IMG/VR virus record: IMGVR_UViG_3300023112_000001
Reading direction: 5' to 3' (one strand)
Length of the DNA: 64,000 nt
Source of the DNA: a virus
Taxonomy: Duplodnaviria > Heunggongvirae > Uroviricota > Caudoviricetes > Crassvirales
Position 1 is the first letter of the stretch, and each line of letters starts with the position of its first letter. This document shows, in pieces, positions 17,027 through 48,576 of the stretch. The notes below the pieces were generated by a model that saw only the letters and a program-made list of their open reading frames with translations, made no database searches and was not told where the DNA came from. Made by a program: the position numbers and the translations under genes.

Positions 17027-17136
17027 CTTTTTCTAATGTTTTAAAATGTTCCCTTATAATTTTTCCTAACTCTGCATCGTTTGGAGTCTCTTGAACTAAT
17101 TTACGCGCATATATATACACCTGAATCGCTCTTCCT

Positions 17137-17349
17137 TTATCCATTTTTTTTAGATTTAATATTTAATTCACTTATAATCCCATCTAATTTTACAATTCTA
17201 TTGTCGTTTGGAAATATTGCCATCATCGCCTCTGTTATTACTCTAGCACGACCATAATCTCCATCAGATATAGCTTCATTAAATTTCGCTCCTAAATGAA
17301 TTTCATCGTCAAAAATTTCTCTACCTAATTCATAAATTTTCTCTATCAT
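17137..17349 (-). CDS. hypothetical protein (70 aa).
   Basis: ORF only. Confidence 0.35.
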   Translation of the reverse strand: MIEKIYELGREIFDDEIHLGAKFNEAISDGDYGRARVITEAMMAIFPNDNRIVKLDGIISELNIKSKKNG

Positions 17350-17855
17350 AGTGTATTAATTTGAATTATTATCTCTCTATCTTCTAGATCATCAACTTGC
17401 TGATACTCATATTCAATTTTAGTTAAATATTGTATCGAATCATCAGGTATAATCTTGGCTTTAACTATGCAGTCATTGCCAGTTTTTATTAATATTCCTG
17501 CAAGGTTTTCTATATCCCAATTAGGAATATAACCTTCTTTAGGGTACTTCCAATTTACCTCACCTTTTCTTCGCTGTATTGCCCCATGATTTATAACTGT
17601 TTTTATTATATATTTAATACTAACTGGGGTCTCTATCTCCAATCCTCTTGGAATATAACTTAAAAAATAATGATGTAAACTTTTTACTGCCGTGTTCCTC
17701 CCAAATCTAGCAATAGCTCCATTATAGATATTTTGGCTATTAACCTTTATGTATCTATTAGGAGCTTTTTTATTGCTAGTATACGGTATATGAGTAGGAA
17801 ACTTAGGGAATCTAAGTTCTATCATTTTGTTTTTGTCTCCAATTTTTAAAATCAA
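17346..17855 (-). CDS. RusA-like Holliday-junction resolvase (putative).
   Basis: NWDIENLAGILIKTGNDCI...IPDDSIQ resembles the RusA DxDNxxK...D...DD catalytic pattern. Confidence 0.45.
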   Translation of the reverse strand: MILKIGDKNKMIELRFPKFPTHIPYTSNKKAPNRYIKVNSQNIYNGAIARFGRNTAVKSLHHYFLSYIPRGLEIETPVSIKYIIKTVINHGAIQRRKGEVNWKYPKEGYIPNWDIENLAGILIKTGNDCIVKAKIIPDDSIQYLTKIEYEYQQVDDLEDREIIIQINTL

Positions 17856-18810
17856 GCGCTATTCTAGAATTAACAGTCATGCCACCACCTTGTTGCATAT
17901 ATCTGAAATGCGCAAAATTTAACATATCCTTTTCAGAATACTTAGGTTTATTTTCTTTAGCATATATTTCTGCTGCTTTTTTAGTTGAAAAAGCTTTGCT
18001 AGTATAGGATAAAGTCCTACTTATAGCTGGGAAATTACCAATATCAAAATCTTTATCTGAAACATACCAATAATTATCCCCTTTAAACATATTAACCCCA
18101 TCTTCGGTAACAAATAAAATCTTTTTTGATTCTATGTATTTTAAAGCTAATTTTTTTGTAGAGAAATACATAAAACTTTTTTCACTTCCATTATATTTGT
18201 ACATATAATTATGACTATCATAACCATATAGCTTATTTTCACTTATTTGTACAGCACATGATTTATCCCCTTCATATATATCTACACCATCTTCAGTTAC
18301 AAATAGAGGTTTTTTATATGCTTTAATTATACTCAATTTAGCTCCATATACTCTACAGTTTGTATTTCTTCTTACTTTTACTCTTATACCGTAGTCACAT
18401 AATTCAAAAGAGTCTATAATATTATTTTTATTATGACCAATATCTATACTATCTCCAACTGTAAATACTTCTCCATCAGATAGTCTTTTTATTGAATATA
18501 TTGAATAAAGATCACTTTCTAATATATCTTCTGTTGTATAGCCTGAAGTTATTGCTTTTCCATTTATATTTCTACACCAACAACCTATATTTATATTGCT
18601 ACCAAAATTTGTAAATAAATCTTTTAAGTCAGAGTTTTGTTTAAAACTTAATATCTCATAATCCTTCTCTTCAACTTTCTCCCAAAATTCTGGAAAATTT
18701 GGAGCTTCATCATGCGTGGCTTTGGTTCCTTTCCCATCGCAAATATCGCCGACCTCCCATTGTTTCCCTGATCCTGCAGGATATCGTTTTACGCATTTAT
18801 ATTTGATCAT
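17812..18810 (-). CDS. hypothetical protein with an internal tandem repeat (332 aa).
   Basis: Repeated segments KPLFVTEDGVDIYEGDKS and KILFVTEDGVNMFKGDNY. Confidence 0.45.
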   Translation of the reverse strand: MIKYKCVKRYPAGSGKQWEVGDICDGKGTKATHDEAPNFPEFWEKVEEKDYEILSFKQNSDLKDLFTNFGSNINIGCWCRNINGKAITSGYTTEDILESDLYSIYSIKRLSDGEVFTVGDSIDIGHNKNNIIDSFELCDYGIRVKVRRNTNCRVYGAKLSIIKAYKKPLFVTEDGVDIYEGDKSCAVQISENKLYGYDSHNYMYKYNGSEKSFMYFSTKKLALKYIESKKILFVTEDGVNMFKGDNYWYVSDKDFDIGNFPAISRTLSYTSKAFSTKKAAEIYAKENKPKYSEKDMLNFAHFRYMQQGGGMTVNSRIALDFKNWRQKQNDRT

Positions 18811-19232
18811 TTTATTATTCCTCCGTTTTTATCAATTTTATCTTCTGTTAAATATTCTTCAATTTTAGTTACGTCAATAACAAACGACATTGTCATCCCG
18901 CCTTTAGGATTTTGAAATGGCTCATTTTTTTGTACTAAAAATGGAGTTATAACTTCTTCGTACAGTTCAAAATTATCCTCCCTATCTAATGCAATACAAT
19001 GAGGTTTGTCACACATCAATCTTTTAGAAACAACTAATTCTTCAAATACTACTCTAGGGTTATGACTCATATTAGATATACCTCTAACAGCAAATAGTCC
19101 ACAAGAGCCTAGTGGAGAATTTGAAGCTATTATGTAAGAATATTCACAAGGTTGTATAATATCAAAAATACTTGGCTCACTTTTATGTTTTTTATTTATG
19201 ACTACTGGCTTTTTACCATTTAATAATTTCAT
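18807..19232 (-). CDS. hypothetical protein (141 aa).
   Basis: ORF only; dUTPase and dCTP-deaminase motifs were looked for and not found. Confidence 0.4.
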   Translation of the reverse strand: MKLLNGKKPVVINKKHKSEPSIFDIIQPCEYSYIIASNSPLGSCGLFAVRGISNMSHNPRVVFEELVVSKRLMCDKPHCIALDREDNFELYEEVITPFLVQKNEPFQNPKGGMTMSFVIDVTKIEEYLTEDKIDKNGGIIK

Positions 19233-19887
19233 TATTTAAATTTTTAGTTATTTTATCAATTTTTTTAAAGCTAAAGTCCCACCTATTTCCTTTATAACTT
19301 AATTCTAATGGATGTTCAGCTTCAATAATATAATTATTGTCGCTAATATGCTTTTTATATTTTTTAATATAATTACCCCATAAGCAATAAACAATCCCGG
19401 GATTATTTTCAGATAAAGTTTCTAATAAATATTTAATAAATACATCCCATTGTTTTACATGAGATTTACTAGTTCCAGCTTCAATTGTTAGAGATGAGTT
19501 TAATAATAAAACTCCTTGTTTAGCCCAAGACTCTAGCGTTGTATCAAAATTAAGATCTAATCCATTATAATAATCTTCCTCAACATTCTTTTTTATGCTC
19601 ATCAAAGATGGGCTTAATAGAGGAGATTCTAATGAATTTCCAAAAGCTAACCCATTTGCTTTTATGCTTAAAGGTGGGCAATGACCAATAATTACAACTT
19701 TTAAATCTCTATACTTTGTTAATCTAAAAGCTTTAAATACATCTTTTTGTTTTGGATATATTGCAGCTTTTTTTTTATAAAGCTCTTGTAAATATTCAAT
19801 TAAATTTTTAAAATAATTTGAAGCCAGTACAGGGCGCAAAACCCCATACCAGTCTCCAAATATTTTTCTTGCTACTTTTTCATTCAT
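19213..19887 (-). CDS. uracil-DNA glycosylase family-1 homologue with a remodelled catalytic motif (GQDPY replaced by GHCPP).
   Basis: Family-1 UDG motifs VVIIGHCPPLS...NGLAFG (compare ILGQDPYHGP..GLCFSV), QGVLLLNSSLTIEAGTSKSH (compare GVLLLNxVLTVRAxxAxSH) and EAEHPLELSY (compare HPSPLS). The water-activating Asp is Cys and the thymine-excluding Tyr is Pro. Confidence 0.7.
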   Translation of the reverse strand: MNEKVARKIFGDWYGVLRPVLASNYFKNLIEYLQELYKKKAAIYPKQKDVFKAFRLTKYRDLKVVIIGHCPPLSIKANGLAFGNSLESPLLSPSLMSIKKNVEEDYYNGLDLNFDTTLESWAKQGVLLLNSSLTIEAGTSKSHVKQWDVFIKYLLETLSENNPGIVYCLWGNYIKKYKKHISDNNYIIEAEHPLELSYKGNRWDFSFKKIDKITKNLNNEIIKW

Positions 19888-21426
19888 TTAAATTAATGAT
19901 TTAATAGGATAATCCCATTTTTTTAAAGAATCTTCTTTAACTTCTAAAGCACCAATTCTATCATCTTTTTCTGCATGTTCTTTCATCATACTTTTCCTAA
20001 AGTCAGAGTATGAGGTTAAATAATCACTAAGCTCTTCAGAATAGATATCTTTTAAAATTCCTTTTAAATCAATATCTACCTCTGTCTTAATAAACTGTTT
20101 TTGATATTTTTCAGCATATCTACATATAGCGTTAACTATAAAAAGCCAATTAATTACTTTATCAGAATTAAATGTAGAAGTATGTACTCTAAATTCAGCC
20201 GTACCTCTTTTATTGAAAAACAAAGGTATTAAATTACACCAAAAATAACGGTAGTTAACATACCATTTGTGATCAAAACCATTATCACTAGGATGAGGCA
20301 TTCCCATATAATACTTACTGCTTTGCTTGCCTCTCATTCTTCTTAAAAAATTATTGGCATTTTCCTCCTCCTCCTCATCCATTACAACTGGAGTATCTAT
20401 ATCAGTTTTACCATAAATATAGAAATTAAAAAGCTTTGACAAGTCACCATCCATTTTTTTATTAAACTCAACTTTTGGTAACGGCTTACAATAGTCTTTT
20501 CCAGTATTTTTAAACTTTGATGTTTCTTTAAAATACTCAGGAAACATTTTATACATCTCATCTTGAATCTTATATAATACTTTAAAGATAGATATCCCAT
20601 ATTCTGGTGTTTTTGCTATATTCCCAATATGAATATGTAAAGATCCATCTACATTTCTCAAACAGTATTTATTAAGTAATTCACAAGATTGTTTTATTGT
20701 GTGAAGACCTCTTTCTCCCTGTAATGGGATAGTTGTATATTCAAATGGATTAACCATTCCGTGTCTTAAACTACCATCTTTAAGTGGTATTAATCCTGTT
20801 TTATAACAATGTCTAACAGGTATTTGACCATTATAAGTTTCAAATTCTACTCCAAATGTAGTTTCTCCTAATTCTGTATGAAACTTTTTAGTTACATCTT
20901 TATTAAAAGAAAAATGCTTTTCATAGTATTCCTTAAATGATTGAAATTGATGTTCAAATGAATAATTTAATCTAAATGGATATCTTGATCCAATAAATTT
21001 TTCTTTTACTTTAACGCCACTAGCCTTTACAATTGACTTATGAATAAATTTTCCAGAATTTATTACTTCAAGAAAGTTTTTAGTAAGAATATCTTCAGAT
21101 ATTGCTAAAGAAAATTCACCATACCTATCGGTTGTAACTTCTATGTTTTTAATACTATCTCTAGTAAATTTACCGTATACTGGATCTTCGTTTTCATCAA
21201 ACCCAATTATACCGTTATATAGATCTGTTCCAGACTTTAACACCCAATGTTTGGTTTCATTGTCAAAATCAATTAATCCATTATTTATTCTATGCCATTT
21301 ACCATCAGACATTTTAAAGCACTGAACACCCATCTTATAAAATTTACCAGAAATTTTTCTACATTCTGATCTTATAGCTTCTTCACCATTATATGTCTCT
21401 ATTACTTCGTTAATCTTTTTTGCCAT
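19888..21426 (-). CDS. amidoligase (GCS2/YbdK-like carboxylate-amine ligase) with a large N-terminal extension.
   Basis: G-x-E-x-E motif FGVEFETY and H-x-H motif GSLHIHIGN, characteristic of the gamma-glutamylcysteine-synthetase-2 / Amidoligase_2 family; 512 aa. Confidence 0.5.
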   Translation of the reverse strand: MAKKINEVIETYNGEEAIRSECRKISGKFYKMGVQCFKMSDGKWHRINNGLIDFDNETKHWVLKSGTDLYNGIIGFDENEDPVYGKFTRDSIKNIEVTTDRYGEFSLAISEDILTKNFLEVINSGKFIHKSIVKASGVKVKEKFIGSRYPFRLNYSFEHQFQSFKEYYEKHFSFNKDVTKKFHTELGETTFGVEFETYNGQIPVRHCYKTGLIPLKDGSLRHGMVNPFEYTTIPLQGERGLHTIKQSCELLNKYCLRNVDGSLHIHIGNIAKTPEYGISIFKVLYKIQDEMYKMFPEYFKETSKFKNTGKDYCKPLPKVEFNKKMDGDLSKLFNFYIYGKTDIDTPVVMDEEEEENANNFLRRMRGKQSSKYYMGMPHPSDNGFDHKWYVNYRYFWCNLIPLFFNKRGTAEFRVHTSTFNSDKVINWLFIVNAICRYAEKYQKQFIKTEVDIDLKGILKDIYSEELSDYLTSYSDFRKSMMKEHAEKDDRIGALEVKEDSLKKWDYPIKSLI

Positions 21427-21430
21427 TTTT

Positions 21431-23437
21431 TTAAGCTATATTAAGTTTTGAATTAAGAATTGTGTCTTTTAAATCATCTACTAACGCTTGAACTGTTTTT
21501 GATGATTCTAACCATGACTCACTTAAAGTGTCGTCTTCTATTTTATTTAACAATTTTATAACTTGGTCAAAGTCTTTAGAGACTCCATCGTTATAAATTT
21601 CCTCATACCAAGCTTTTTGCTCTTCAGTTAACTCAAGAGAACTGCTTGCGTTTTCATTTTTTTTCTTTTCTTTTGCCTTTTCACCAGATTCAATCCATTC
21701 TTTCATAGTAGACTTTACCCAAACTTCACTTTTATCTATGTAATGAAGAATGTCGTCATATGTTTTTCCATAATGATCTAAAGCATCAAAATATTTAATT
21801 ACAGTGGTTTCGCCATATTCTTCTTTTTTGTAAAAGTCTCCTTCTTCAAAAAATATTTCATTTTTAGTGAGAACTTTAGCTGCTGCCTCTAATGCTATTT
21901 TATTTTGCTTATTATCATCGCTTTCTTTATGATCTGGAGAATTAAAAGGCACTACCTCAATATGAGTTAATCTTCCATTATAAAAAGTATATTTTTTATT
22001 ACTAAATAATGGAGCGAATGATCCTGTATAAGAGTTCCCAGATTTATTATAAGCCCCCATACTAGTATATAAGTACTCATGCTTAATGTTAGTAACTGGA
22101 TATATAGCATATTCCATCAATACAGACAATCTTTTTGCATCTGTATCTGAATTAGATAAACATCCACCTGGAATTAATTTACCTTTCTTAACTCTTTTAA
22201 GAGCTTTTGATGCTTTTTGATAAGAGGCATGATCTGGCAACATTATCCCATCTGTAAAATAATAAAGCTTGGCGTCATCGTCAGTTTTTTTTGAATAATA
22301 TCCAATTTCATCAAGATAAATTGCACCATGAACTAATTTTTTAGCACTAGCTTTATTTTCTTTCATGTAATATCTTCCAGAAGCATATTGAACTATTTTT
22401 TCTGTTAAATTTAAAGATTCAGCTTCCTGAGCAAATACATGTAATGGTGTTCCAGGATTATTTTTAATACTTTGACTTATAATAGGTAATTGCAATTGAG
22501 TATCTTTAGGCTTATTCCTATTATTAAATCCTCCTACATTTACGGAATTAGGAAAGTAATCCTCTTCATTATAACCACCCCAACTACTATTATTTGTAAA
22601 AGATTTTACTTGAGCAGCATTGCTTCTATCTATGGGAATTTCATCTACGATCACTCCATTTTCTATTACTAAAACAGTATTTTCTACAACTGGATCTATG
22701 TTAGGACTCTCGTCTTCAGCAATCATCCACAATGGAGCTTCTAAAGAACTAAGCCATAATCCTTTTTTATTATTATATGAAAATAAAGGTCTTTCCTCCG
22801 TTACTTCAGAAGTTGCATAATTATACTTTCTTGAGGCGCCTTTAAATACATATCCTAATCCATCTTCTTTATTTTCCCAAATAATAGATGCAGCACCTCT
22901 ATATTCCTTTAAAACATCATAATTTTTTTGTTTTATTAAAATATAAGATAAAATTTGAGTGTCATTTGGGGAGTATTCTTTTCCATCATAAATAAATTTA
23001 TCTGGAACGTCATATTTTTTCTTTAATTCCTCAGAATTATACAATGTTCCATTATGTATAGCGCCGCCTATTATATTATCCTCTTCCGAATAACAATAAG
23101 GCTGAGTATATTGAATGAATTTGCCCCCACTACTAGCCTTCCTAGAATGACCTAGAACTATATTATGTTTTGGAGATGGTACAACATATTCTTCTATTAA
23201 GTCAGAATAACCTTTATTTACAATATGTTTTACGTTATTACCTGATAAAAATCCAGATGCATCTCCACCTCTAGTATCATTAATAATACCTAGCAAATTG
23301 AATTTATCTTTGCTGAAACCACGAGAATTTTTTCCCATAAAAGCCCATATTCCACAATTAAGGGTGGAGTAACTCCCACCCTTAATGTAATTAATCAAAC
23401 TACTTATAAACAATGTTATTAATACTATATTGTGCAT
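21431..23437 (-). CDS. class II (Ntn-type) glutamine amidotransferase-domain protein with a 27-aa hydrophobic propeptide before the catalytic Cys and a roughly 430-aa C-terminal domain of unknown function.
   Basis: NCGIWAFMGK...RGGDASGF matches the N-terminus of GAT-II enzymes (compare MCGIxG...RGPDxSG of AsnB/PurF). No SGGxDS PP-loop follows, so it is not an asparagine synthetase. No Met directly precedes the Cys, implying propeptide removal. Confidence 0.65.
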   Translation of the reverse strand: MHNIVLITLFISSLINYIKGGSYSTLNCGIWAFMGKNSRGFSKDKFNLLGIINDTRGGDASGFLSGNNVKHIVNKGYSDLIEEYVVPSPKHNIVLGHSRKASSGGKFIQYTQPYCYSEEDNIIGGAIHNGTLYNSEELKKKYDVPDKFIYDGKEYSPNDTQILSYILIKQKNYDVLKEYRGAASIIWENKEDGLGYVFKGASRKYNYATSEVTEERPLFSYNNKKGLWLSSLEAPLWMIAEDESPNIDPVVENTVLVIENGVIVDEIPIDRSNAAQVKSFTNNSSWGGYNEEDYFPNSVNVGGFNNRNKPKDTQLQLPIISQSIKNNPGTPLHVFAQEAESLNLTEKIVQYASGRYYMKENKASAKKLVHGAIYLDEIGYYSKKTDDDAKLYYFTDGIMLPDHASYQKASKALKRVKKGKLIPGGCLSNSDTDAKRLSVLMEYAIYPVTNIKHEYLYTSMGAYNKSGNSYTGSFAPLFSNKKYTFYNGRLTHIEVVPFNSPDHKESDDNKQNKIALEAAAKVLTKNEIFFEEGDFYKKEEYGETTVIKYFDALDHYGKTYDDILHYIDKSEVWVKSTMKEWIESGEKAKEKKKNENASSSLELTEEQKAWYEEIYNDGVSKDFDQVIKLLNKIEDDTLSESWLESSKTVQALVDDLKDTILNSKLNIA

Positions 23438-24237
23438 TTAACTTTCTCCTCTATTTTTAATTTGTTTTTTACTTCGTAAAGATTGCTTCTAATATCAGAA
23501 TCACCTACATTATCAAAAGATAATATTTTTTCTATATTACCTTCAATATTAAGCCAATCAAACATTTTAATTACCTGATCATAAACCCAATCTAAATACT
23601 CATCATTAGCGAAATAGCTTCCTAGAGCTCTAACCTCAACTCCATATGATTTAATTCTTATAGATCCATAAGACCCATAATTATTCCTTCTAAACTCATC
23701 ATATTTGATTTCATCGCTAGGCAACACTACAAATAAATCATACGCTCGACCTATTGCTTTGGCAATTTCACCCATTCCGAATTTTGATTCATCAAATTTA
23801 TATCCTAAATGAAGATGAAATCCAGCTACACGCTTGTTTGTCTCTAATTTTGGAGTTTCTATTTCACGTAATTGAGAATCCCAAGAATTAAAAAATCCAG
23901 AACATCCAAATTCTTTAGCATCTTCTAAATCTAAAAATCTATTTTTAAATTCAACTGAATCCTCACAAACAATTTCACATCCTTTAATTTCTGCTATTGT
24001 ATTAATTATATTTTTCAGAAACTTCATAGAATGAATAAACTCTTCTTTATTTTTTGATGGAGGGATATTCCCCTCAACCGTTAAGTTATCTTTATGGATC
24101 AAAAATCCTTTTGTTCCAGCTTCTTCTGGTGCAAATTTTGTTCCAGATGTAATTAACGAGGATGGCATATATGTACCATCTTTTTTCTTTCTAATAAAAA
24201 ATTCAGGATCTGAACCTATTGTTTGTAATTTTAGCAT
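23425..24237 (-). CDS. amidoligase (GCS2/YbdK-like carboxylate-amine ligase), short form.
   Basis: IGSDPEFF (G-x-[DE]-x-E-F) near the N-terminus and AGFHLHLGY (H-x-H); 270 aa. Confidence 0.5.
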   Translation of the reverse strand: MLKLQTIGSDPEFFIRKKKDGTYMPSSLITSGTKFAPEEAGTKGFLIHKDNLTVEGNIPPSKNKEEFIHSMKFLKNIINTIAEIKGCEIVCEDSVEFKNRFLDLEDAKEFGCSGFFNSWDSQLREIETPKLETNKRVAGFHLHLGYKFDESKFGMGEIAKAIGRAYDLFVVLPSDEIKYDEFRRNNYGSYGSIRIKSYGVEVRALGSYFANDEYLDWVYDQVIKMFDWLNIEGNIEKILSFDNVGDSDIRSNLYEVKNKLKIEEKVKCTI

Positions 24238-24238
24238 T

Positions 24239-25087
24239 TTATAATTTTTTAAATCTAATTATTTTATAATATTTGTTTTGAAAATCGTCATTTAAAACTT
24301 TAATCAAATTGTTTTTTATTGTTCCTTCGTATACCTTACCTATACTTAAATAATAAGCATTCTTATTGTCTACACACTTAAATCTTTCAATTTTAGAATT
24401 AAATAGACTCTTTAGCTCTTTTTTTAATTCAACCCAATTTTTATTAGAATATAATCTTTGAAGGCTGTCAATCTTATTTTCTTTAATTGAGTTTATAGAT
24501 GATGTTGAATTTAATATACTGAAAAGCTCTATTTTTAAGCTATTTTTAATGACATTAATATCATACTCTGCGACACAATAACATGAGTTAAATGGTTGAT
24601 GATAACTACGATAAGTTACCTGTGGTGTAATTATATGCGCTGCATGAAATAATTTCCAAAATGAGATAGAAGGATATTGTTTTTTTAATTCGCAATACGT
24701 TTTTACAGTTTCAAGACAATCTTCTGTTCCAAGATACCTTACTATCTGATTGATGAATAATTTATTTCCAGGAGATAATCCCTTTGTATTAACCTTTACC
24801 GCTTTTGCTGACGAAAGTTTTGGATAAAAACCTCCAGGAAGATCAAAGTTAATGTCTTTTACAATTGAAATATTTTTACATATTTCCTCTTGTATGCCAG
24901 ATATAAATGTATTTAATGTACTAATTTTCACCCTTCTATTTAAATGAAAATAATATTCATCTACTCTTTTAACAATAGTTTGACACGTTCCATAATATAG
25001 CGGTTTATACCCTTTAGGTATTTTTGCAAACAAATAATTAGATTCAGTCATTTTCCAATACCTCTTCATTAATTTTTGTAAATTCAT
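24239..25087 (-). CDS. hypothetical protein (282 aa) inside the amidoligase operon.
   Basis: ORF; translationally coupled to its neighbours. Confidence 0.45.
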   Translation of the reverse strand: MNLQKLMKRYWKMTESNYLFAKIPKGYKPLYYGTCQTIVKRVDEYYFHLNRRVKISTLNTFISGIQEEICKNISIVKDINFDLPGGFYPKLSSAKAVKVNTKGLSPGNKLFINQIVRYLGTEDCLETVKTYCELKKQYPSISFWKLFHAAHIITPQVTYRSYHQPFNSCYCVAEYDINVIKNSLKIELFSILNSTSSINSIKENKIDSLQRLYSNKNWVELKKELKSLFNSKIERFKCVDNKNAYYLSIGKVYEGTIKNNLIKVLNDDFQNKYYKIIRFKKL

Positions 25088-25448
25088 TCCAGTCTCCAGA
25101 TGCTATTTTAGCCAATCTGCTAAAATCTCTAGCATCATTTTCCATATAATACATCCACGCCTTACCGTATTCAGTATCTATTTCTTTTCTATTATAAAAA
25201 GTAGGATAACCTTCTAGGGAATCTAAGTTCTTTAACGTTTCATTGTCATTTACTTGAAATATTTCTAACACTATTTCATTTTCGCCATTAAGCGTAACCG
25301 CTGGAAAACCACCTAAACTGTACATAGTATATTCTGGTGTAGTTCTATGTAATCCAACATACGCTTGATTTCTTAATAAATAGTTGTTATAATGATTTTT
25401 TCTCAATGTTCCGTATACTGCTACCAAAACAGGTGGTTGTAATTCCAT
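25044..25448 (-). CDS. gamma-glutamyl cyclotransferase (GGCT / AIG2-like).
   Basis: VAVYGTLRKNHYNNYLL and GGFPAV match the YGTL...N and G-[YF]-P signatures of the GGCT/AIG2 fold; 134 aa. Confidence 0.7.
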   Translation of the reverse strand: MELQPPVLVAVYGTLRKNHYNNYLLRNQAYVGLHRTTPEYTMYSLGGFPAVTLNGENEIVLEIFQVNDNETLKNLDSLEGYPTFYNRKEIDTEYGKAWMYYMENDARDFSRLAKIASGDWNEFTKINEEVLEND

Positions 25449-25452
25449 AATT

Positions 25453-26259
25453 TTAAATTTTATTGTTAATTATTTCAGTAATTTTTTCTTTATAAGCCTG
25501 AACTCCTTGTTCTCCAAGACTTGGAGCTGAGTTTACTTCAACTACGATAAATTCAGGATTATCTTTTTTAGACGATTGTATTCTTAAATCTACGCAACCA
25601 ATATCTAAGCCTACAGCGTCGATAGCTTTACAGCATTCTTCTACCACTAAATCCCAATTAGATGGCTTATCGAATAATTCATGATTTTCATTTACCCAAT
25701 TACAATTAGAGCTATTAAAGAACCATCTATCTTCAGCATCTTCTTTACGAAGTTTTCTCCAAGTCATAAAACATTCGTCTTTAGTACAATGGAGGCGATA
25801 TTCTTTAGCGTAATTGTGAAATTTTTCAAAATAATAACCATCCAATTGAGCTTGAGTGGTGTTATTAATAAATTCTTCTAGTTGCTCTTCGCTATCTATC
25901 TTAATCATTCCTTTTCCCTTAAAGCCAAATACTCTTTTAGCTAATATGGGATAATGATCAACAAATTTTACACCATAGTCATCATGATTTGTCCACCAAG
26001 CAGATTGCTTTACTTCGCTTTTATCAAAACATGCTTTCATCATAAGTTTACTGCGACTGTTTTGGATAGATTCTACAGTATTAACTTCAATGATAGTGTA
26101 CTTTCCATATGATTTAGGGAAAGCCACTTCTGTTTCAGTTACTGATCCTAGTCTAACCAATGATCTAAGTCTAAAAGGACCTATACCATTATTTCTATGC
26201 CTTAAAGCAGAGCAAGAGTGATTTTTTGATCTCACTCTTGCATATCTTTCTCTTACCAT
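25453..26259 (-). CDS. ATP-grasp ligase (RimK / glutathione-synthetase-like).
   Basis: C-terminal FIVVEVNSAPSLG (compare the E-x-N motif of ATP-grasp enzymes); size and layout consistent with RimK-like peptide ligases. Confidence 0.6.
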   Translation of the reverse strand: MVRERYARVRSKNHSCSALRHRNNGIGPFRLRSLVRLGSVTETEVAFPKSYGKYTIIEVNTVESIQNSRSKLMMKACFDKSEVKQSAWWTNHDDYGVKFVDHYPILAKRVFGFKGKGMIKIDSEEQLEEFINNTTQAQLDGYYFEKFHNYAKEYRLHCTKDECFMTWRKLRKEDAEDRWFFNSSNCNWVNENHELFDKPSNWDLVVEECCKAIDAVGLDIGCVDLRIQSSKKDNPEFIVVEVNSAPSLGEQGVQAYKEKITEIINNKI

Positions 26260-26262
26260 AAT

Positions 26263-26964
26263 TTAAGATAAAATTGATTTTTTATTTTCTAACAAATAAC
26301 GTATTGCTGCTAAAGCAAACGGATTATACGTTTCTTCAGGATGAGCTTGTTCCGCTACGATTGGTAGCTCAGGATGAGCAATTAATTCTACATGTCTACC
26401 ATGCTTTTTATCTGATCTACCCACCACAACTAATGGAGTATTATTCATAATAGTATCTTCTCTTAAAACTTGATGATGAATACTATTTGTTCCATAAACT
26501 GGTCTTACGAAATTAAGATTCCTTGCTAAAGCTTTTCTTACACTTAAGTCTATATCTACCTCATGAACTAGCTTGCTTCTATCATAGCTCTCGTTATGAA
26601 CATGATTCACATGTTGTCTCATGGATGCTCCGAAATATACTCCTAAGCTCTGAAACCCTCTGCAAATACCATATATTGGCGTTTTAGCTTCAATATATTT
26701 TGGTAAATGATTAATATCAAAATATTCTCTAAATGGGCAAGGTTTTCCAGTAAAATAACCAGGAGCCTGATTATACCTCATTGTATCTACATCTGGACCA
26801 CCTGGTATTAATAATAAATCTAAATCAGTCCTTATTGGTGAATGTGGATTCAATATTATAACTTCTGCATCAAATGATTCAATAAATTGCATATAAGGAG
26901 CAGTTACACCAAAACTATTATCTCCTGTTTTCCATGCTGGAATTCCTATTTTATATTTTTTCAT
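26263..26964 (-). CDS. class I glutamine amidotransferase / peptidase C26 (gamma-glutamyl hydrolase, PuuD-like).
   Basis: Catalytic Cys motif PIYGICRGFQSLG (G-x-C-x-G-x-Q); His-Pro-Glu motifs ELIAHPEL and EQAHPEE. Confidence 0.7.
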   Translation of the reverse strand: MKKYKIGIPAWKTGDNSFGVTAPYMQFIESFDAEVIILNPHSPIRTDLDLLLIPGGPDVDTMRYNQAPGYFTGKPCPFREYFDINHLPKYIEAKTPIYGICRGFQSLGVYFGASMRQHVNHVHNESYDRSKLVHEVDIDLSVRKALARNLNFVRPVYGTNSIHHQVLREDTIMNNTPLVVVGRSDKKHGRHVELIAHPELPIVAEQAHPEETYNPFALAAIRYLLENKKSILS

Positions 26965-26975
26965 ATTTTTTTTTA

Positions 26976-27368
26976 TTAATCTTTTTTAAATATCCAAGTT
27001 CTTATTTTGTTTCCTGTATTTGCATTTACTGACTCTTCAGATGAATGCTGACATATTCTATCTAATATTTTATTAAACTCTTCTCCACCATGAATAGTAT
27101 TTGTAAATACTAGAAATGATTTTCTAGAATGCTTACCATTATTACATAGTTGATTGAATCCTTCTTTAAAGATTTCGCATAACTCTTCTTCCGTTAAGGT
27201 TTCTTTCCATCTCTGAACTTTTCTATTTTCAGGATTTCCCATCAATACAGAAGTTCCACAAGTTACATATTGAGCTCTAAATATATGTTTTTTTCTTCCA
27301 AATGTAATTGTAGATCTTTGTCCTCCATCATAAAGATCTTGACGATTCCACTGCATTTCTATGTTCAT
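26976..27368 (-). CDS. hypothetical protein (130 aa) between the two GATase1 genes.
   Basis: ORF only. Confidence 0.4.
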   Translation of the reverse strand: MNIEMQWNRQDLYDGGQRSTITFGRKKHIFRAQYVTCGTSVLMGNPENRKVQRWKETLTEEELCEIFKEGFNQLCNNGKHSRKSFLVFTNTIHGGEEFNKILDRICQHSSEESVNANTGNKIRTWIFKKD

Positions 27369-27967
27369 AATAAATATTTTTTTATTAATTTTTCACAATA
27401 TTCTTTTGTTTTTTTTGGGCAATTAGGAAATTCAGGATGACCTTGAATTGCTAAACAGTTAGTATCTGGGTAATATACTATTTCAGGTTCAAAAGGAATC
27501 TTTATATCACCTAATCCAGTCGTATATTCACTAGATCTATTTACAGAGCTCCACGCAATTAACTTGTGATTAGGAACATGAAAGGGATTCATCATTTGAT
27601 GATGAGTAGAAGTTATCTCAAGCTCTTGAACCCCATCAGTAATAGAATGATTGCCTGATATAGCATGATTAGTTACATTTTGTATAACTTTCCCATTTTG
27701 CTGCATAGCAGTAAGAAATTGCGATCCATAACATATTCCTAACATAGGGATGTTATTTTCCAAAGCATGGTTATATGCTTCAATTTCTTTTAGCGACCTA
27801 TTTTTGTCTATATAAGACCTTACGTTAGCCTCTCCATATATTTCTGGGTCTACATCTGGACCTCCAGTAAATATAACTAATCCTTTAGCCTCTTCTATTT
27901 TATCTAATAGATCTTGGTTAATCCAATTTTTATAAGAATCTCTTCCTAGTGTAAGTATTCTATGCAT
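27365..27967 (-). CDS. class I glutamine amidotransferase / peptidase C26 (second paralogue).
   Basis: PMLGICYGSQFL (G-x-C-x-G-x-Q), STHHQ and IQGHPEF. Confidence 0.7.
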   Translation of the reverse strand: MHRILTLGRDSYKNWINQDLLDKIEEAKGLVIFTGGPDVDPEIYGEANVRSYIDKNRSLKEIEAYNHALENNIPMLGICYGSQFLTAMQQNGKVIQNVTNHAISGNHSITDGVQELEITSTHHQMMNPFHVPNHKLIAWSSVNRSSEYTTGLGDIKIPFEPEIVYYPDTNCLAIQGHPEFPNCPKKTKEYCEKLIKKYLL

Positions 27968-28659
27968 TTTTTGTTATTTTTTCCTAATTCGTTAGAAATT
28001 AAATTTTTAATCAATTTATAGTCTTGTGATTTTTCATTTACTGGATCACATTTTCTAAAACTTTCTTCTAAATACTTTTGTGGGTCATAGTGCTGTATGT
28101 CAAACGTTCTTATTATTTCATTTCTATTAACTCCATAATCCATTACCCAATGATTGGTATTTCTTATTTTACCTCCATTGAAAAAATAAAATTGAGATAC
28201 AAAAAATATAACCTCTACATAAGAATATTTACACTCTTCATTAGAAAATACATTTAAAGATGGCAATATTATATTATTCCATTGATATTTATTATAGGGA
28301 GCCCTAACAAACATTAAAAGAATCTTATAAAATAATCTTTTATTAATTTGCGTTTTTAATTCTGCTGGATCTATAGAAATCAATATTCCATCAAGATCAA
28401 CATATTTTGGGTCAATATAATCAACACATTCTTTTTTTTTAAGAGTATGCTCTTTAATTTCAACAATACCTCCAAAACATTCTTTAAGATTATTTAAATG
28501 AATTAAATATTGATCAGTTTTAGCAGGTGATTCTTTCATTTGCCGAAAATTCATGAAAACATTTATTTTGAAATCATAATTATGTTTAGAAAAACATTGA
28601 TCTTGATTAAATAATCCATTAAATGAATTATTTGAAAATATTACATTATCTACTGCCAT
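27946..28659 (-). CDS. hypothetical protein (237 aa), first gene of the amidoligase operon.
   Basis: ORF only. Confidence 0.45.
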   Translation of the reverse strand: MAVDNVIFSNNSFNGLFNQDQCFSKHNYDFKINVFMNFRQMKESPAKTDQYLIHLNNLKECFGGIVEIKEHTLKKKECVDYIDPKYVDLDGILISIDPAELKTQINKRLFYKILLMFVRAPYNKYQWNNIILPSLNVFSNEECKYSYVEVIFFVSQFYFFNGGKIRNTNHWVMDYGVNRNEIIRTFDIQHYDPQKYLEESFRKCDPVNEKSQDYKLIKNLISNELGKNNKKCIEYLH

Positions 28660-28669
28660 TTTTTTAAAT

Positions 28670-29692
28670 TTATTTTAATATTTCTTTTAATAATTTTTTA
28701 GTTTCTATTTCTTTATATTTTTTATAATAATCAGTTATATCCTTACTGTTAAAATCAAATGTAGTTATAAATTCAAATCCAAAATCTTTTCGATTTCTTT
28801 CAGCAGATTTTATCCCAGCATTATCATGATCATAAAACGTTAGTATTCTATTAGCTTTTGATTTTAATATATCAATTACTTGAGGTTTAAATATATATCC
28901 TTCTCCTTGTGGAGATACTGCATTATAGCCATATTCATATAAAAACATCACATCTTTTGTTGATTTAGTGATTATGATTAAATCAACTACCTCATCAGGT
29001 AACAAGCCCCATCCAGAAAAAGTTCCGTCTAAAAATCCATTTAAAAATTTATTATCTCTTGACTCCCTAAATGGCTGATATATCTTATAATTAATAATAC
29101 CATCTTTATACTCTTTATAAGCATAAGCATAATTATCAGCTTTAAATATCTTATTATTCATCCAATAATATTTAATAGGAACTACATTAAATATATTAAG
29201 AGTATTTAAAGATATACCAAATTGATTCCAAAATCTTAAATCATTAATATTCCATTTTCTAACAGATATATCTAAATTTAACTTTGTAGATGAAAATTTT
29301 TTTCTAGAATCTTTATTTAATCTATATTCTACTGGTTTTAATTGCTTAAAGTCAATATTATTTATTATAAATTTATTTCCAAGATTAAAGTCGATTATAA
29401 TTCTCTCTAAAGCGTCAGTATATTTACTTAGATTAAATAAATGTTTTACAAAATTAACAACATCACCGCTTGCTCCTCTGTGATCTTTAAAAAACAAACT
29501 TCCATTTACTTTTTTGCTTGGAAATATTCCAAAAGATGGGTTTTTATCTTTACTTAATGGAGAATTAAAAGGCTTTCCCACTATAAATTCACCTATATAA
29601 TAGCGATATACTTCATAGTCAGAAACCTCGTCCATTAATTTTTCATAAGATGGATAGACTTTATCATATTTACTATCATTTGGATTAAACAT
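28670..29692 (-). CDS. DnaG-like DNA primase (degenerate zinc-ribbon plus Toprim domain).
   Basis: KNPSFGIF...FKDHRGASGDVVNFV resembles the DnaG zinc-binding domain but lacks the Cys ligands; Toprim motif ILTFYDHDNAG (D-x-D-x-x-G). Confidence 0.6.
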   Translation of the reverse strand: MFNPNDSKYDKVYPSYEKLMDEVSDYEVYRYYIGEFIVGKPFNSPLSKDKNPSFGIFPSKKVNGSLFFKDHRGASGDVVNFVKHLFNLSKYTDALERIIIDFNLGNKFIINNIDFKQLKPVEYRLNKDSRKKFSSTKLNLDISVRKWNINDLRFWNQFGISLNTLNIFNVVPIKYYWMNNKIFKADNYAYAYKEYKDGIINYKIYQPFRESRDNKFLNGFLDGTFSGWGLLPDEVVDLIIITKSTKDVMFLYEYGYNAVSPQGEGYIFKPQVIDILKSKANRILTFYDHDNAGIKSAERNRKDFGFEFITTFDFNSKDITDYYKKYKEIETKKLLKEILK

Positions 29693-29746
29693 TGTCTCAT
29701 GTTTTAAAAAAAAGAGGGGCTATTAACCCCTCTTATATATTTGTTA

Positions 29747-30370
29747 TTAATCTTCCCAAAAACCAGAACCTTCAGAACTATCATCAGAACTTGATGAGTC
29801 TTTTTCTGAATCCTTTACTGGTCTTTCCATGATAGCATCATTTTTATTATTTAATTTGCTACCTGGAACTCCAATATACCAAGGGTATCCGTTTAATCTA
29901 AGAAAATCACTTGGAAAATTACCGTTTCCATAATCTACAACTATATCAAACATTTGACCTTTATTTGCTGATAAAGATTCTTTAATGAAGATAAATGCAT
30001 AATCTAAAAAATCATTATAATCCTTTATATCTCTTTTATAATCTAATTGATCATTTTCATTTATTTCATGACCAAATGTTTTTAAAAGATGCTTTAATTC
30101 ATTAACCGCGTATTTTTCAGCAGCAGGTGATTTAAAACCACTAGAGTAATAAAACCCCTTATTTACTGGATAAACACTAATTGAATCATCACTATTAACA
30201 GTTTGCTCTGTGTCCCACGCAAACAATTTATAGTCAGGAGCATTTTCATTATCATTTTCTCCTTTCCTCTCTACTGTAACCTTACATCCAATAACTACTC
30301 CAGCTTTTCCATTATTAAATACTAATGCTTTTGGCTTGTCGTCAAATTTTTCTTGATCTAAATAACTCAT
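29747..30370 (-). CDS. putative single-stranded DNA-binding protein (T7 gp2.5-like, acidic C-terminal tail).
   Basis: Highly acidic C-terminus SSSSDDSSEGSGFWED with a penultimate aromatic residue; sits between the primase and the Sak4-like ATPase. Confidence 0.4.
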   Translation of the reverse strand: MSYLDQEKFDDKPKALVFNNGKAGVVIGCKVTVERKGENDNENAPDYKLFAWDTEQTVNSDDSISVYPVNKGFYYSSGFKSPAAEKYAVNELKHLLKTFGHEINENDQLDYKRDIKDYNDFLDYAFIFIKESLSANKGQMFDIVVDYGNGNFPSDFLRLNGYPWYIGVPGSKLNNKNDAIMERPVKDSEKDSSSSDDSSEGSGFWED

Positions 30371-30406
30371 TCTTTATATATATTTGTTGTTGATAATTAT
30401 AAAATT

Positions 30407-31120: not shown

Positions 31121-31140
31121 AACGTATTTATTAAATTAAT

Positions 31141-31890: not shown

Positions 31891-31909
31891 AAGCTTATTT
31901 ATTTGTATA

Positions 31910-32155
31910 TTAAATTTCGTTTCTTTTAAATTCTTCTATTCTTTTATATACAGATTCATTTACATCTCTTGGTAACTCTTTGAATTGATTCGCAGCCCCT
32001 AGAAACATTAAATCTATACTTAGATTAGATAATCCATCTCTATTTAATAATATTGATAATTCTCTATGATCATTTCCTATTCTATTTAAATTTAATCCAT
32101 GATAATTCTCAATATTATAGTAGTATGGATAGAATAGCCCAAACATAAGATTGCA
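31910..32155 (-). CDS. DnaB-like replicative helicase, exon 2 (C-terminal 81 aa).
   Basis: CNLMFGLFYPYYYNIENYH...SILLNRDGLSNLSIDLMFL aligns with the DnaB C-terminus ADLIMFIYRDE...IIIGKQRNGPIGTV.LTF. The ORF-track Met is created by the intron's terminal G. Confidence 0.6.
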   Translation of the reverse strand, partial: CNLMFGLFYPYYYNIENYHGLNLNRIGNDHRELSILLNRDGLSNLSIDLMFLGAANQFKELPRDVNESVYKRIEEFKRNEI

Positions 32156-33434: not shown

Positions 33435-33435
33435 A

Positions 33436-48571: not shown

Positions 48572-48576
48572 CATAT

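Follow-up and report, generated by a model that had tools for sequence, protein, structure and literature searches.

A probable crAss-lineage copy of the phage amidoligase cassette in the replication module of a metagenomic phage

The window analysed here is a stretch of 64,000 nucleotides from a 101-kb crAss-like metagenomic phage (IMG/VR record IMGVR_UViG_3300023112_000001). It contains a cassette of ten tightly packed genes on the (-) strand, at positions 19888-28659, which is adjoined by a UDG homologue at 19213-19887. All eleven ORFs of the first-pass annotation are present on the (-) strand with unchanged coordinates, and the gaps between them range from -44 to +11 nt, which bears out the overlapping and abutting boundaries described for the ten genes. 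The upstream neighbour of the cassette is a DNA primase gene (28670-29692, (-) strand; phrog_12622 at 2.1e-46), as in other crAss-like phages, and the product of this flanking core gene shares 30-32% identity with the primases of phi14:2, crAss001, and cr108_1. Within the replication module, the cassette fills a slot of variable content between the genes for primase and UDG.

The ten genes had been described as an operon of their own. When the (-) strand was scanned from 17000 to 32000, no terminator-like site was found within the cassette, and a separate operon is thus not borne out. The sole strong terminator-like site in this range is a hairpin upstream of the primase gene (29734-29712, (-) strand), whose stem has 10 pairs (5 G-C) and is followed by the T-run TTTTTT. 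This hairpin (29712-29734) is the probable boundary of a transcription unit containing the primase, the cassette, and the UDG. Since there is no terminator-like site inside the cassette, it is probably transcribed as a single unit together with the primase and the genes that follow the UDG.

The cassette encodes three predicted ATP-dependent carboxylate-amine ligases, these being an Amidoligase_2 enzyme, a COOH-NH2 ligase, and a RimK/MptN-like ATP-grasp enzyme; these and all the genes described below are on the (-) strand. The first, g2 (19888-21426; 512 aa), is of the Amidoligase_2 type (PF12224, at 22.1 bits, just over the cutoff of 22; phrog_2443 at 6.8e-33). It has 293 homologues, many of them on contigs of about 100 kb and many with a precomputed PF12224 assignment. 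Its motifs are G192-x-E-x-E, H264-x-H, and E411-x-R-x-H; across the family G192xE194xE196, H264xH266, R393, and E411xR413 are invariant and H415 is nearly so. Only members of the crAss clade have its N-terminal extension, which is about 190 aa long. The g2 family profile had no match among PDB sequences. The second ligase, g4 (23425-24237), is a phiEco32-type COOH-NH2 ligase (type 2), matching PF14395 (COOH-NH2_lig) at 5.9e-6 and 26.1 bits against a cutoff of 25, and phrog_3815 at 1.4e-40. It is 27.5% identical to phi32_86 of phiEco32, carries the motifs D10-P-E12, H141-x-H, and E201-x-R, and keeps the invariant residues D10, P11, E12, E55, H141, H143, R183, R194, E201, and R203. Both had been taken for GCS2-like ligases. 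They are indeed carboxylate-amine ligases with the expected motifs, but neither matches the GCS2 family itself, and comparison of the g2 and g4 profiles by hhalign gave a probability of 2.8%. By these profiles they are members of two different sibling families, not close paralogues. The third ligase, the ATP-grasp enzyme g7 (25453-26259; phrog_2599 at 1.4e-27), is 39% identical to g038 of phi14:2. It has weak Pfam matches to CPSase_L_D2 (2.7e-5) and RimK (2.2e-4) and NCBIfam matches to MptN (8.3e-12) and rimK_fam (2.5e-9), both far under their cutoffs. Its nearest relatives appear to be the RimK/MptN glutamate ligases.

Four further enzymes are predicted to split glutamine or gamma-glutamyl amides, namely an Ntn GAT-II, two C26 GATase1 paralogues, and a GGCT/AIG2 cyclotransferase. 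The cyclotransferase, g6 (25044-25448), is of the AIG2/GGACT type (Pfam GGACT at 2.5e-22; phrog_2520 at 1e-30), with the YGTL motif at residue 12 and E. coli YtfP (1xhs, 2.3e-13) as its top PDB match. The paralogues g8 (26263-26964) and g10 (27365-27967) match Pfam Peptidase_C26 at 2e-20 and 2.1e-14, respectively, and g10 also matches phrog_7218 at 3.3e-33. They are 25% identical, with an hhalign probability of 98%, and have the GIC(R/Y)G and HPE motifs in common, the former present as GIC101RG in g8, for which the top PDB match is 3fij (2.9e-9). Orthologues of g8 are found in the metagenomic locus L007 (44% identity) and Leptolyngbya phage Lbo-JY46 (38%), and those of g10 in cr108_1 (43%) and Alcaligenes phage QDWS535 (38%). 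Wherever they were checked, the catalytic motifs of the cassette enzymes are present, as expected if the enzymes are active. These assignments, together with those of the ATP-grasp and GAT-II proteins, agree with the earlier annotation on Pfam, PHROGs, and motif evidence.

The Ntn-type GAT-II, g3, is encoded between g2 and g4, and its Cys28 aligns with Cys1 of PurF. In 20 of the 26 members of this GAT-II clade a hydrophobic leader of 17-35 aa ends directly before the catalytic Cys. It is a helix in the predicted model, and the start codon is backed by a ribosome-binding site. The other cassette proteins have neither a signal peptide nor a membrane segment, which counts against an envelope target. 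The leader suggests membrane-associated, self-processing activation, in which the hydrophobic leader of the crAss clade would have to come off at Cys28. Against this stands that Ntn catalysis would be blocked if the leader were lipid-modified or left uncleaved, so that its role is an inference.

Three cassette proteins are without a family match in Pfam or PHROGs, as had been noted. The lineage-specific g5 (24239-25087) has a fixed position between the GGCT and COOH-NH2 ligase genes and, at its C-terminus, an SH3-like barrel some 50 aa long, which is a weak hint of the envelope. The ORFan g9 (26976-27368; 130 aa) has no Pfam or NCBIfam match and a weak, insignificant PHROG match, and tblastn against the phage collection found none. 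A second ORFan, g11 (27946-28659; 237 aa), lies between the primase and the rest of the cassette and has no match in Pfam, PHROG, or NCBIfam, nor by tblastn against the phage collection.

The adjoining g1 (19213-19887) is a family-1 UDG homologue (PF03167, E 4.5e-11; NCBIfam NF003592 at 162.3 bits against a cutoff of 162) with 3tr7_A as its top PDB match (1.4e-32). It had been described as a remodelled UDG directly beside the cassette, and it is: g1 ends at 19887 and g2 starts at 19888, and the water-activating loop GQDPYH is altered to G68-H-C-P-P-L. The alignment with 3tr7_A places Cys at the Asp and Pro at the Tyr, with Asn130 (LLLN), Phe82 (GLAF), and His192 (HPLELS) retained. In relatives the loop is QDPY (crAss001, cr108_1, L006) or xEPY (phi14:2, L009). 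The location of this gene had been read as a functional clue to the cassette, which comparison with other phages does not support. In crAss001 and cr111_1 a UDG is in the same slot, but with a ThiF/metalloprotease cassette instead, and in FpV4 the UDG directly follows the primase. Conversely, L007, L018, and the P0022 contig have the cassette without an adjacent UDG, and there is no UDG beside it in phiEco32, phage TL, RIO-1, BUCT695, or the Alcaligenes phage. Judged from this gene order, the adjacency is inherited crAss synteny, and g1 is a flanking core replication gene outside the cassette.

The families had been recognised correctly according to Pfam and PHROGs, and the broad proposal of a system by which gamma-glutamyl or peptide-like amide conjugates are made, trimmed, and recycled also holds. 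Of the two options that had been put forward for it, that of a small-metabolite or peptide system which does not act on DNA agrees with the evidence. It is possible that the ligases would build up to three amide bonds, either as peptide or isopeptide links or as carboxylates amidated with ammonia from the amidotransferases, and that the hydrolases and cyclotransferase would afterwards strip or recycle gamma-glutamyl groups. The target would not be DNA and would most likely be a peptide-type envelope precursor, the peptidoglycan stem peptide. The modification would take place in the replication phase of the infection, on the cytoplasmic side of the membrane, and might alter the wall for superinfection exclusion or in preparation for lysis. 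The joint claim, of a known cassette whose ligase/hydrolase pathway acts on peptidoglycan or an envelope peptide, is put forward tentatively as the best explanation, at somewhat below an even chance. The identity of the target as peptidoglycan or an envelope peptide, taken by itself, is more doubtful, and no racemase, Mur-ligase-like, or peptidoglycan-binding enzyme domains were found in the cassette. The peptidoglycan-target proposal follows Iyer 2009 and Hardies 2013.

The same enzymes might instead serve a small-molecule pathway, through transient gamma-glutamylation of a polyamine, amino acid, or other metabolite. One ligase would gamma-glutamylate the amine, the further ligases would extend or amidate the product of that step, and the C26 hydrolases, EgtC-like GAT-II, and GGCT would strip the glutamyl group. 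The resulting metabolite might serve in signalling, protection, or counter-defence. This is unlikely, since the NCBIfam matches to characterised enzymes are all far under the family cutoffs, no substrate-defining domain was identified, and the cassette holds no transporter or tailoring enzyme. In addition, three ligases and large accessory proteins without an assigned function exceed the needs of the known gamma-glutamyl shuttles.

Tagging or editing of host or phage proteins with peptides, in which the ligases would attach glutamate or other amino acids in the manner of RimK or PafA and the hydrolases and cyclotransferase would reverse or trim the tags, is less likely again. The ATP-grasp enzyme most resembles the glutamate ligases RimK, MptN, and LysX, carboxylate-amine ligases of this fold include the Pup ligase PafA, and peptide modification of proteins is named explicitly in the title of Iyer et al. 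2009. Classical cassettes also have conserved small ORFs (about 73-77 aa) beside the ATP-grasp gene, which are possible substrates. However, the window cassette has no such small ORF, its gaps being at most 11 nt and its smallest gene 130 aa, no conserved acidic C-terminus is common to the small proteins of the other phages, and the gene context indicates no target.

Hypermodification of DNA bases with an amino-acid, polyamine, or peptide adduct, with participation of the altered UDG, was the other option of the first-pass annotation and is now very improbable. The cassette is within the replication module beside the primase in several unrelated phage groups, g5 of the window phage is strongly basic (net charge +23), and the window UDG has lost its catalytic Asp and also the Tyr with which family-1 UDGs exclude 5-substituted uracil. 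Yet the net charge across the g5 family runs from -9 to +21, so that basicity is not conserved, in cr108_1 the UDG that accompanies the cassette is a canonical QDPY enzyme, and the leader of the GAT-II suggests the membrane. Profiling of 40 window ORFs with Pfam or PHROGs found no thymidylate-synthase-like hydroxymethylase, 5-hmdU kinase, pyrophosphorylase, or transglycosylase, the first two being genes for which a co-occurrence check had been proposed, and the ThyA-like g032 of phi14:2 had no tblastn match in the window. The DNA of two cassette-bearing phages is reported to be restriction-sensitive, that of U17 being cut by 11 of 16 enzymes and that of tf by five, and tf DNA was also cloned. 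With the UDG synteny inherited, no modification genes among the ORFs profiled, and cut DNA in two cassette phages, hypermodification is unsupported. Generic auxiliary metabolic genes boosting host nitrogen, glutamine, or glutathione metabolism, as proposed for phage ZRK32 (PMC10945688) and loosely for OM43 and Poseidoniales viruses, are just as improbable, as there are no close copies of host enzymes (all NCBIfam equivalog matches are far under cutoff, and g2 and g4 have none), the set has no glutamine synthetase or glutathione synthetase orthologue, and the constant arrangement of several genes, some for phage-specific proteins of unknown function, favours a dedicated pathway.

To return to the envelope-peptide explanation, its cassette has a history of its own. 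Iyer et al. in 2009 reportedly discussed the phiEco32-type cassette and predicted a role in peptidoglycan from genome context, and the peptidoglycan idea is this 2009 prediction, repeated in later papers. The module has been named the 'peptidoglycan modification cassette' (PMC5498523), and is likewise a putative peptidoglycan modification cassette in PMC6256558, PMC11945000, and PMC10580990. The constellation had been thought uncharacterised, which stands to the extent that the literature search found no functional study of the pathway and no experiment on any cassette member; it is not new, having been discussed since 2009 and annotated in phi14:2. Some of these enzymes are also reported from viruses whose assigned hosts are archaea without peptidoglycan, which counts against a peptidoglycan target: a Poseidoniales virus has an amidoligase and a GATase, and the nanohaloarchaeal virus DNTV-1 has GGCT, ATP-grasp enzymes, and a GAT-II glutaminase domain.

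Among the crAss-like phages, the cassette is annotated between the primase and UDG in Cellulophaga phage phi14:2 and in cr108_1, and the gene set recurs in these two and in the metagenomic loci L006, L007, L009, L017, and L018, which is more than chance would give. The COOH-NH2 ligase found 308 phage records by tblastn, including phiEco32, LUZ24-like phages, Vibrio and Aeromonas phages, and RIO-1. In phi14:2, cr108_1, phiEco32, Alcaligenes phage QDWS535, phage TL, and RIO-1 the gene set has a primase or primase/helicase as its neighbour; BUCT695 has the same set, with no primase within the stretch examined. The region is thus very probably the crAss-lineage copy of a known and widespread phage amidoligase cassette, of the type found in phiEco32, LUZ24, and RIO-1.

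The region from 19213 to 28659 holds eleven back-to-back ORFs on the minus strand, g1 to g11, with intergenic gaps of -44 to +11 nt. Profile searches against Pfam and PHROGs bore out the families named in the first-pass annotation. These minus-strand genes are a UDG (g1, 19213-19887), an Amidoligase_2 protein of PF12224 (g2, 19888-21426; 22.1 bits in Pfam against a cutoff of 22, phrog_2443 at 6.8e-33), an Ntn-type GAT-II (g3, 21431-23437; GATase_6 at 6e-8), a phiEco32-like COOH-NH2 ligase type 2 of PF14395 (g4, 23425-24237; 26.1 bits against a cutoff of 25, phrog_3815 at 1.4e-40), a GGACT/AIG2 protein (g6, 25044-25448; Pfam E 2.5e-22), an ATP-grasp protein (g7, 25453-26259; phrog_2599 at 1.4e-27) and two Peptidase_C26/GATase1 proteins (g8, 26263-26964, at 2e-20; g10, 27365-27967, at 2e-14). 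The remaining three, g5, g9 and g11, have no family match in Pfam or PHROGs.

The catalytic motifs of these families are in place. In g2 they are G192-x-E-x-E, H264-x-H and E411-x-R-x-H, invariant or nearly so across 20 homologues, and its homologues carry a precomputed PF12224 assignment. Alignment of g4 with gp86 of phiEco32 (phi32_86) shows D10-P-E12, E55, H141-x-H143, R183, R194 and E201-x-R203 in common. Cys28 of g3 is aligned to Cys1 of PurF, the YGTL motif is present in g6, and both g8 and g10 have GIC(R/Y)G and HPE motifs. The region thus encodes three carboxylate-amine ligases that depend on ATP and, for the cleavage of glutamine or gamma-glutamyl amides, four further enzymes; where checked, their catalytic residues are present.

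Some of the finer labels need revision. The ligases g2 and g4 had been taken for two GCS2 paralogues; they belong to separate sibling families (hhalign probability 2.8%), and at E values up to 0.1 they matched only PF12224 and PF14395, leaving the GCS2/YbdK model in Pfam (PF04107) unmatched. On their motifs, and on the Iyer 2009 classification that reportedly places them with such ligases at the superfamily level, 'GCS2-like' would be valid at that level at most. The ATP-grasp protein g7 is borderline for RimK in Pfam (21.3 bits, cutoff 21) and under the RimK family cutoff of TIGR00768 (36.9 bits against 143.4). For the C26 pair, which had been described as PuuD-type, membership of the broader Peptidase_C26 family stands, while the PuuD equivalog NF008471 (cutoff 266) does not apply, g8 scoring 17.6 bits and g10 26.7 bits. 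The two are distant paralogues (25% identity, hhalign probability 98%). Orthologues of g10 are found in cr108_1, an uncultured crAss-like phage, and in an Alcaligenes phage; those of g8 are in the related metagenomic locus L007 and in a Leptolyngbya phage. Two C26 genes per cassette are also seen in two other crAss-like metagenomic loci, the P0022 contig and L018.

The region is very probably a cassette of the phiEco32 type, already known in phages. Like the cassettes of phiEco32, the LUZ24-like phages, PaP3, tf and RIO-1, it has a PF14395 ligase (g4), a PF12224 Amidoligase_2 (g2), an Ntn GAT-II whose C-terminal region is long and non-catalytic (g3) and a RimK-like ATP-grasp protein (g7) clustered with an AIG2/GGCT protein (g6). 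Both kinds lie in the early/replication block with a primase or primase-helicase adjoining. The classical gene order and the accessory families (phi32_85, phi32_87, phi32_88 and small ORFs) are absent from the window, and by HMM and hhalign these families show no detectable relation to g5, g9 and g11. The window copy is therefore a variant-architecture member of the known cassette. GenBank already contains its nearest relatives, Cellulophaga phage phi14:2 and cr108_1, under equal annotation. In phi14:2 the annotated order is primase, GGCT, 'ribosomal protein S6 glutaminyl transferase' (ATP-grasp), COOH.NH2 ligase, aminotransferase (Gn_AT), amidoligase and UDG; cr108_1 has the same block plus one GATase1.

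The cassette is widespread. A tblastn search with g4 matched 308 phage records, including Pseudomonas LUZ24-like phages, phiEco32-like Kuravirus and phages of Vibrio, Aeromonas, Proteus and Pseudoalteromonas. The five core families are common to phiEco32 (phi32_77-88), Alcaligenes phage QDWS535, Pseudomonas phage TL, RIO-1 and Aeromonas phage BUCT695. The cassette is beside the primase/helicase in the first four, and in BUCT695 no primase is seen within the stretch covered; UFV-P2 has an arrangement equal to that of the phiEco32-type cassettes. In TL the cassette GAT-II (9514-10615 of the locus) is annotated merely as two miscellaneous features, i.e. it is disrupted, and may be dispensable there or reflect a sequence frameshift. 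Near the cassette in L018 (15158-17441) are the NAD-salvage genes NAMPT and NUDIX, and in Leptolyngbya phage Lbo-JY46 (1961-6170 of the locus) PncB and PrsA, also of NAD salvage.

The set was named a 'peptidoglycan modification cassette' by Duhaime et al. 2017 (PMC5498523), who found it kept in RIO-1, phiEco32, 7-11, PA11, tf, MR299-2, LUZ24, PaP3 and CW02. The peptidoglycan proposal is restated, after Iyer et al. 2009 and Hardies et al. 2013, in PMC6256558 and PMC11945000, and PMC10580990 credits Iyer 2009 with proposing a cell-wall change that prevents superinfection. The first-pass annotation had held that this exact constellation is not a characterised pathway. No experimental test of the cassette was found in the literature searched, so that the statement is true of the pathway, yet the constellation is not new, the gene set being known from phi14:2, cr108_1 and the phiEco32-type phages.

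The accessory proteins of phiEco32, TL, BUCT695, cr108_1, the Alcaligenes phage and RIO-1 have no Pfam match, and iterative HMM and hhalign comparisons of them with g5, g9, g11 and the GATase1 proteins were negative, barring one pair, g5 and a 362-aa protein of L007 (hhalign probability 74%). Homologues of g5 numbered 3 by word-indexed search and 11 by exhaustive profile search. A role for g5 as a nucleic-acid binder, suggested by its net charge of +23, was dropped, as the charge varies within the family. Against the phage collection, tblastn with g9 and g11 gave zero matches, as did megablast with the whole region, and a search for related loci among viral contigs with g2 alone gave no confirmed relative. 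One metagenomic contig of 101,130 bp encodes a protein 100% identical to g3, with equal gene order over the surrounding 22 kb.

The cassette is embedded in the crAss-like phage replication module, to which the flanking genes belong. The primase (28670-29692) adjoins it, followed by a Sak4-like ATPase (30407-31120) and a DnaB-like helicase (32559-33599, by tblastn), and 3' of the UDG are a RusA-like resolvase, a PD-(D/E)XK exonuclease and ribonucleotide reductase. This module is collinear with those of phi14:2 and cr108_1, both Crassvirales of the Steigviridae. An operon of its own, as had been supposed, is not borne out: a minus-strand scan found no terminator-like site inside the cassette, and the sole strong one on that strand lies upstream of the primase at 29734-29712. 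The cassette is probably in one transcription unit with the replication genes. A sigma-70 promoter scan was uninformative, with fewer matches than in shuffled sequence. The GC content is 24-36% over the window and approximately 28-32% in the cassette region.

Several other features of the window were recorded. A glucosaminidase-domain protein (5362-5985; PF01832, E 1.1e-26), probably an endolysin, is at the end of the minus-strand block. An RNA ligase (8987-10363; phrog_968 at 3.1e-52) has two calcineurin-like metallophosphoesterases nearby (7037-7762 and 7746-8402), a grouping suggestive of RNA repair, and similar neighbours are seen in L007 and in L017, another crAss-like metagenomic locus. 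A homing endonuclease (10947-11747; phrog_655 at 1.5e-49) is approximately 2 kb downstream of the gene for the ribonucleotide reductase large subunit (13718-15460); the large subunit is 580 aa here against approximately 790-860 aa in relatives and may be split or interrupted. On the early/replication strand is a PspA/IM30-family protein (37227-37901; Pfam E 2.4e-13), from a family of membrane stress or membrane remodelling. A tRNA cluster on the plus strand comprises Asp-GTC, Pro-TGG, His-GTG and Gln-TTG (48499-48802), and ARAGORN reported a minus-strand tRNA-like gene with no anticodon assigned (40196-40273).

The UDG next to the cassette is unusual in its active site. Overall g1 fits family-1 UDG (NF003592, 162.3 bits against a cutoff of 162; PDB UDGs up to 1.4e-32). 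Aligned to solved Ung structures, its water-activating loop GQDPYH reads G68-H-C-P-P-L, with Asp replaced by Cys and Tyr by Pro. In family-1 UDGs the loop Tyr excludes thymine. The uracil-recognising Asn (LLLN130), the stacking Phe (GLAF82) and the His/Leu loop HPSPLS (H192-PLELS) are retained. Elsewhere the loop reads QDPY in cr108_1 and the metagenomic locus L006, both with the cassette, and in crAss001, which is without it, and xEPY in phi14:2 and the metagenomic locus L009. The change in the UDG loop is not coupled to the cassette. The His of the HPSPLS loop is also lost from the phi14:2 UDG, which reads AEDP.

Adjacency to the UDG, which had been offered as a functional clue, loses its force when the slot between primase and UDG is compared across phages. 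In crAss001 (Gp75-79) and cr111_1 it contains two to three proteins of no assigned function, a metalloprotease-domain protein and a ThiF/E1-like enzyme, and in Flavobacterium phage FpV4 the UDG comes straight after the primase, with the ThiF block beyond it. The cassette is present and the UDG not adjacent in the metagenomic loci L007/L008, L018 and the P0022 contig; in L017 a weak UDG match is upstream of the cassette, not downstream, and in L006 the ATP-grasp gene is located after the UDG. A tblastn search with g1 matched 101 records, most of them outside the 6 that hold a cassette GAT-II. The UDG is a conserved gene of the crAss-like group, and its link with the cassette is inherited synteny, not functional evidence. 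Two distinct conjugation-type enzyme sets, the amidoligase set and a ThiF/E1-like enzyme with a metalloprotease, appear to alternate at this one hot spot, and the cassette is a swappable insert of the crAss-like primase-UDG slot.

The GAT-II has a feature that bears on where the pathway acts. Its first 27 residues form a hydrophobic leader that abuts the catalytic Cys28, MHNIVLITLFISSLINYIKGGSYSTLN-C (window 23357-23437, minus strand). An AGGAG ribosome-binding site precedes the ATG at 23437, and there is no start codon beside Cys28. Among the crAss-clade GAT-II in the homologue alignment, 20 of 26 have a hydrophobic leader of 17-35 residues right before the catalytic Cys, typically ending in [TS]-L-N or I-L-A; the other six have an MCG start or a short non-hydrophobic leader. 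Ntn amidotransferases require a free N-terminal Cys, and therefore the leader must be removed. By analogy with the propeptide of B. subtilis PurF, g3 is probably made as a membrane-associated precursor with a self-processed propeptide, and no comparable hydrophobic segment is present in the other cassette proteins. The AF2 model (mean pLDDT 80) shows the leader as a helix and the protein in four parts, including a disordered linker (279-315) and a C-terminal coiled coil. The part that would define the acceptor is uninformative. This conserved propeptide of the crAss-clade GAT-II is a testable handle, through processing and localisation, on the site of the pathway.

A lipoprotein signal peptide was considered for the leader and is unlikely on three grounds: a Cys1 that is lipidated or N-acylated would be unavailable for Ntn catalysis, a lipobox-like ILA before the Cys is found in some members only, and a basic N-region is absent. 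Within the stretch that codes for the leader, shortly before the Cys28 codon, is an inverted repeat (23362-23381, minus strand), GGGTGGGAG-TTA-CTCCACCC. It may form an mRNA hairpin or be mere chance, and at the protein level it is unconserved among homologues.

In the proposed mechanism, as many as three amide bonds would be made by the ligases, whether as isopeptide links or as amidations with ammonia from the amidotransferases. Gamma-glutamyl groups would be taken off or recycled by the C26 enzymes and GGCT, possibly with an EgtC-like GAT-II. In the published proposal the peptidoglycan stem peptide or its precursors would be the substrate. This envelope or peptidoglycan-peptide target is the likeliest of the readings, at well short of an even chance. 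Weak agreement with it comes from the putative membrane-directed precursor of the GAT-II and from the SH3-like tail of g5. Against it, papers report parts of the enzyme set in viruses assigned to peptidoglycan-free archaea, and Mur-like, racemase and wall-binding enzyme domains are absent; the proposal is also one of published predictions, experiments on the cassette being absent from the literature searched. A parallel exists in MurT/GatD and the AsnB-type mDAP amidotransferases. As is well established (see also PMC5871853), these couple an ATP-dependent carboxylate activator to a glutamine amidotransferase, and their substrates are peptidoglycan precursors on the cytoplasmic side of the membrane. 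Domains like those of Mur ligases or asparagine synthetase are absent from the window, and the resemblance is in logic only.

A soluble gamma-glutamyl metabolite pathway, of the type of PuuA/PuuD, EgtA/EgtC or butirosin BtrJ/BtrG, is a doubtful alternative. It would draw on the same families, with no orthology to the window genes seen and all scores far below the equivalog cutoffs. Such gamma-glutamyl carrier pathways have one ligase and one hydrolase, where the window has three and four. Protein tagging, raised in the first-pass annotation as peptide tagging alongside a small-metabolite system, is unlikely. The small ORFs of classical cassettes were tried as LysW-/Pup-like carriers and rejected, since a conserved acidic C-terminus is absent from them and the window has no such ORF.

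Also unlikely is that the crAss-clade cassette is a distinct variant, in which a membrane-targeted, self-cleaving Ntn precursor, two gamma-glutamyl hydrolases and lineage-specific proteins would build and edit a gamma-glutamyl-linked adduct on another macromolecule. The precursor is read in this way because the hydrophobic leader abuts the catalytic Cys; the lineage-specific parts are g5, which has an SH3-like domain, and a beta-rich domain of the GAT-II that has no match. A candidate target would be a lipid-linked precursor of the Bacteroidota envelope or, with much lower probability, phage DNA, which the UDG homologue that has lost Asp and Tyr would read.

Hypermodification of DNA bases, the first option of the first-pass annotation, is very improbable. 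The pathways to alpha-putrescinyl-thymine, alpha-glutamyl-thymine and 5-NeOmdU are also phage-encoded and use amino-acid or polyamine chemistry. Thymidine hypermodification is reported (Lee et al. 2018) to require a dUMP hydroxymethylase, a 5-hmdU DNA kinase and an aGPT-pyrophosphorylase; these pathways are not known to use GS-like or ATP-grasp ligases. The option gained no positive support from the genes or from published digests. No ThyA-like enzyme, P-loop kinase, pyrophosphorylase or transglycosylase was seen by Pfam or PHROGs among the 40 larger ORFs profiled in the window, which covers 64 of approximately 101 kb, and the ThyA-like g032 of phi14:2 has no tblastn match in the window. The DNA of two cassette-bearing phages shows ordinary restriction sensitivity, which is not proof that modification is absent: that of the LUZ24-like U17, the most sensitive among four phages tested, was digested by 11 of 16 enzymes, and that of tf was cut by RsaI, HpaI, EcoRV, SmaI and HaeIII, its fragments being cloned. 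A generic auxiliary role in nitrogen metabolism, the claim made for phage ZRK32, is just as improbable for this cassette.

The cassette is present in hundreds of sequenced phages. The window adds no new kind of system, and its gene set would not surprise a specialist. It is of modest interest for the amidotransferase propeptide, the alternation with ThiF/E1-like enzymes in the slot and the Asp-less, Tyr-less UDG. As phi14:2 is a cultured crAss-like phage with the cassette, it is therefore a practical system for solving the function.

Compared with the classical cassettes, the window copy differs in order and content. From the primase, the window order is C26b (g10), C26a (g8), ATP-grasp, GGCT, g5, COOH-NH2 ligase, GAT-II and Amidoligase_2, whereas the classical order is two proteins of no assigned family, COOH-NH2 ligase, a further such protein of approximately 200 aa, Amidoligase_2, GAT-II, small ORFs, ATP-grasp, GGCT and primase. 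The window has two C26 GATase1 genes extra and is without the phi32_85 family and the small ORFs, and its g5, g9 and g11 show no detectable relation to the unassigned proteins of the classical cassettes. Its Amidoligase_2 has an N-terminal extension of approximately 190 aa and its GAT-II the hydrophobic leader, both unlike the classical proteins.

The crAss-like relatives are closer. The cassettes of phi14:2 (g037-g041) and cr108_1 are in the same position as in the window, the primase-UDG interval, with orthologues 26-43% identical. Differences from the window in cr108_1 are a single C26 of the g10 type, two paralogous proteins of no assigned family, the lack of an annotated GGCT and a GAT-II that starts MCGI. 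The UDGs of phi14:2 (EPY) and cr108_1 (QDPY) retain the acidic catalytic-loop residue, which that of the window does not. Unlike the window, phi14:2 is without a C26 gene and without g5; like the window, it has the GAT-II leader.
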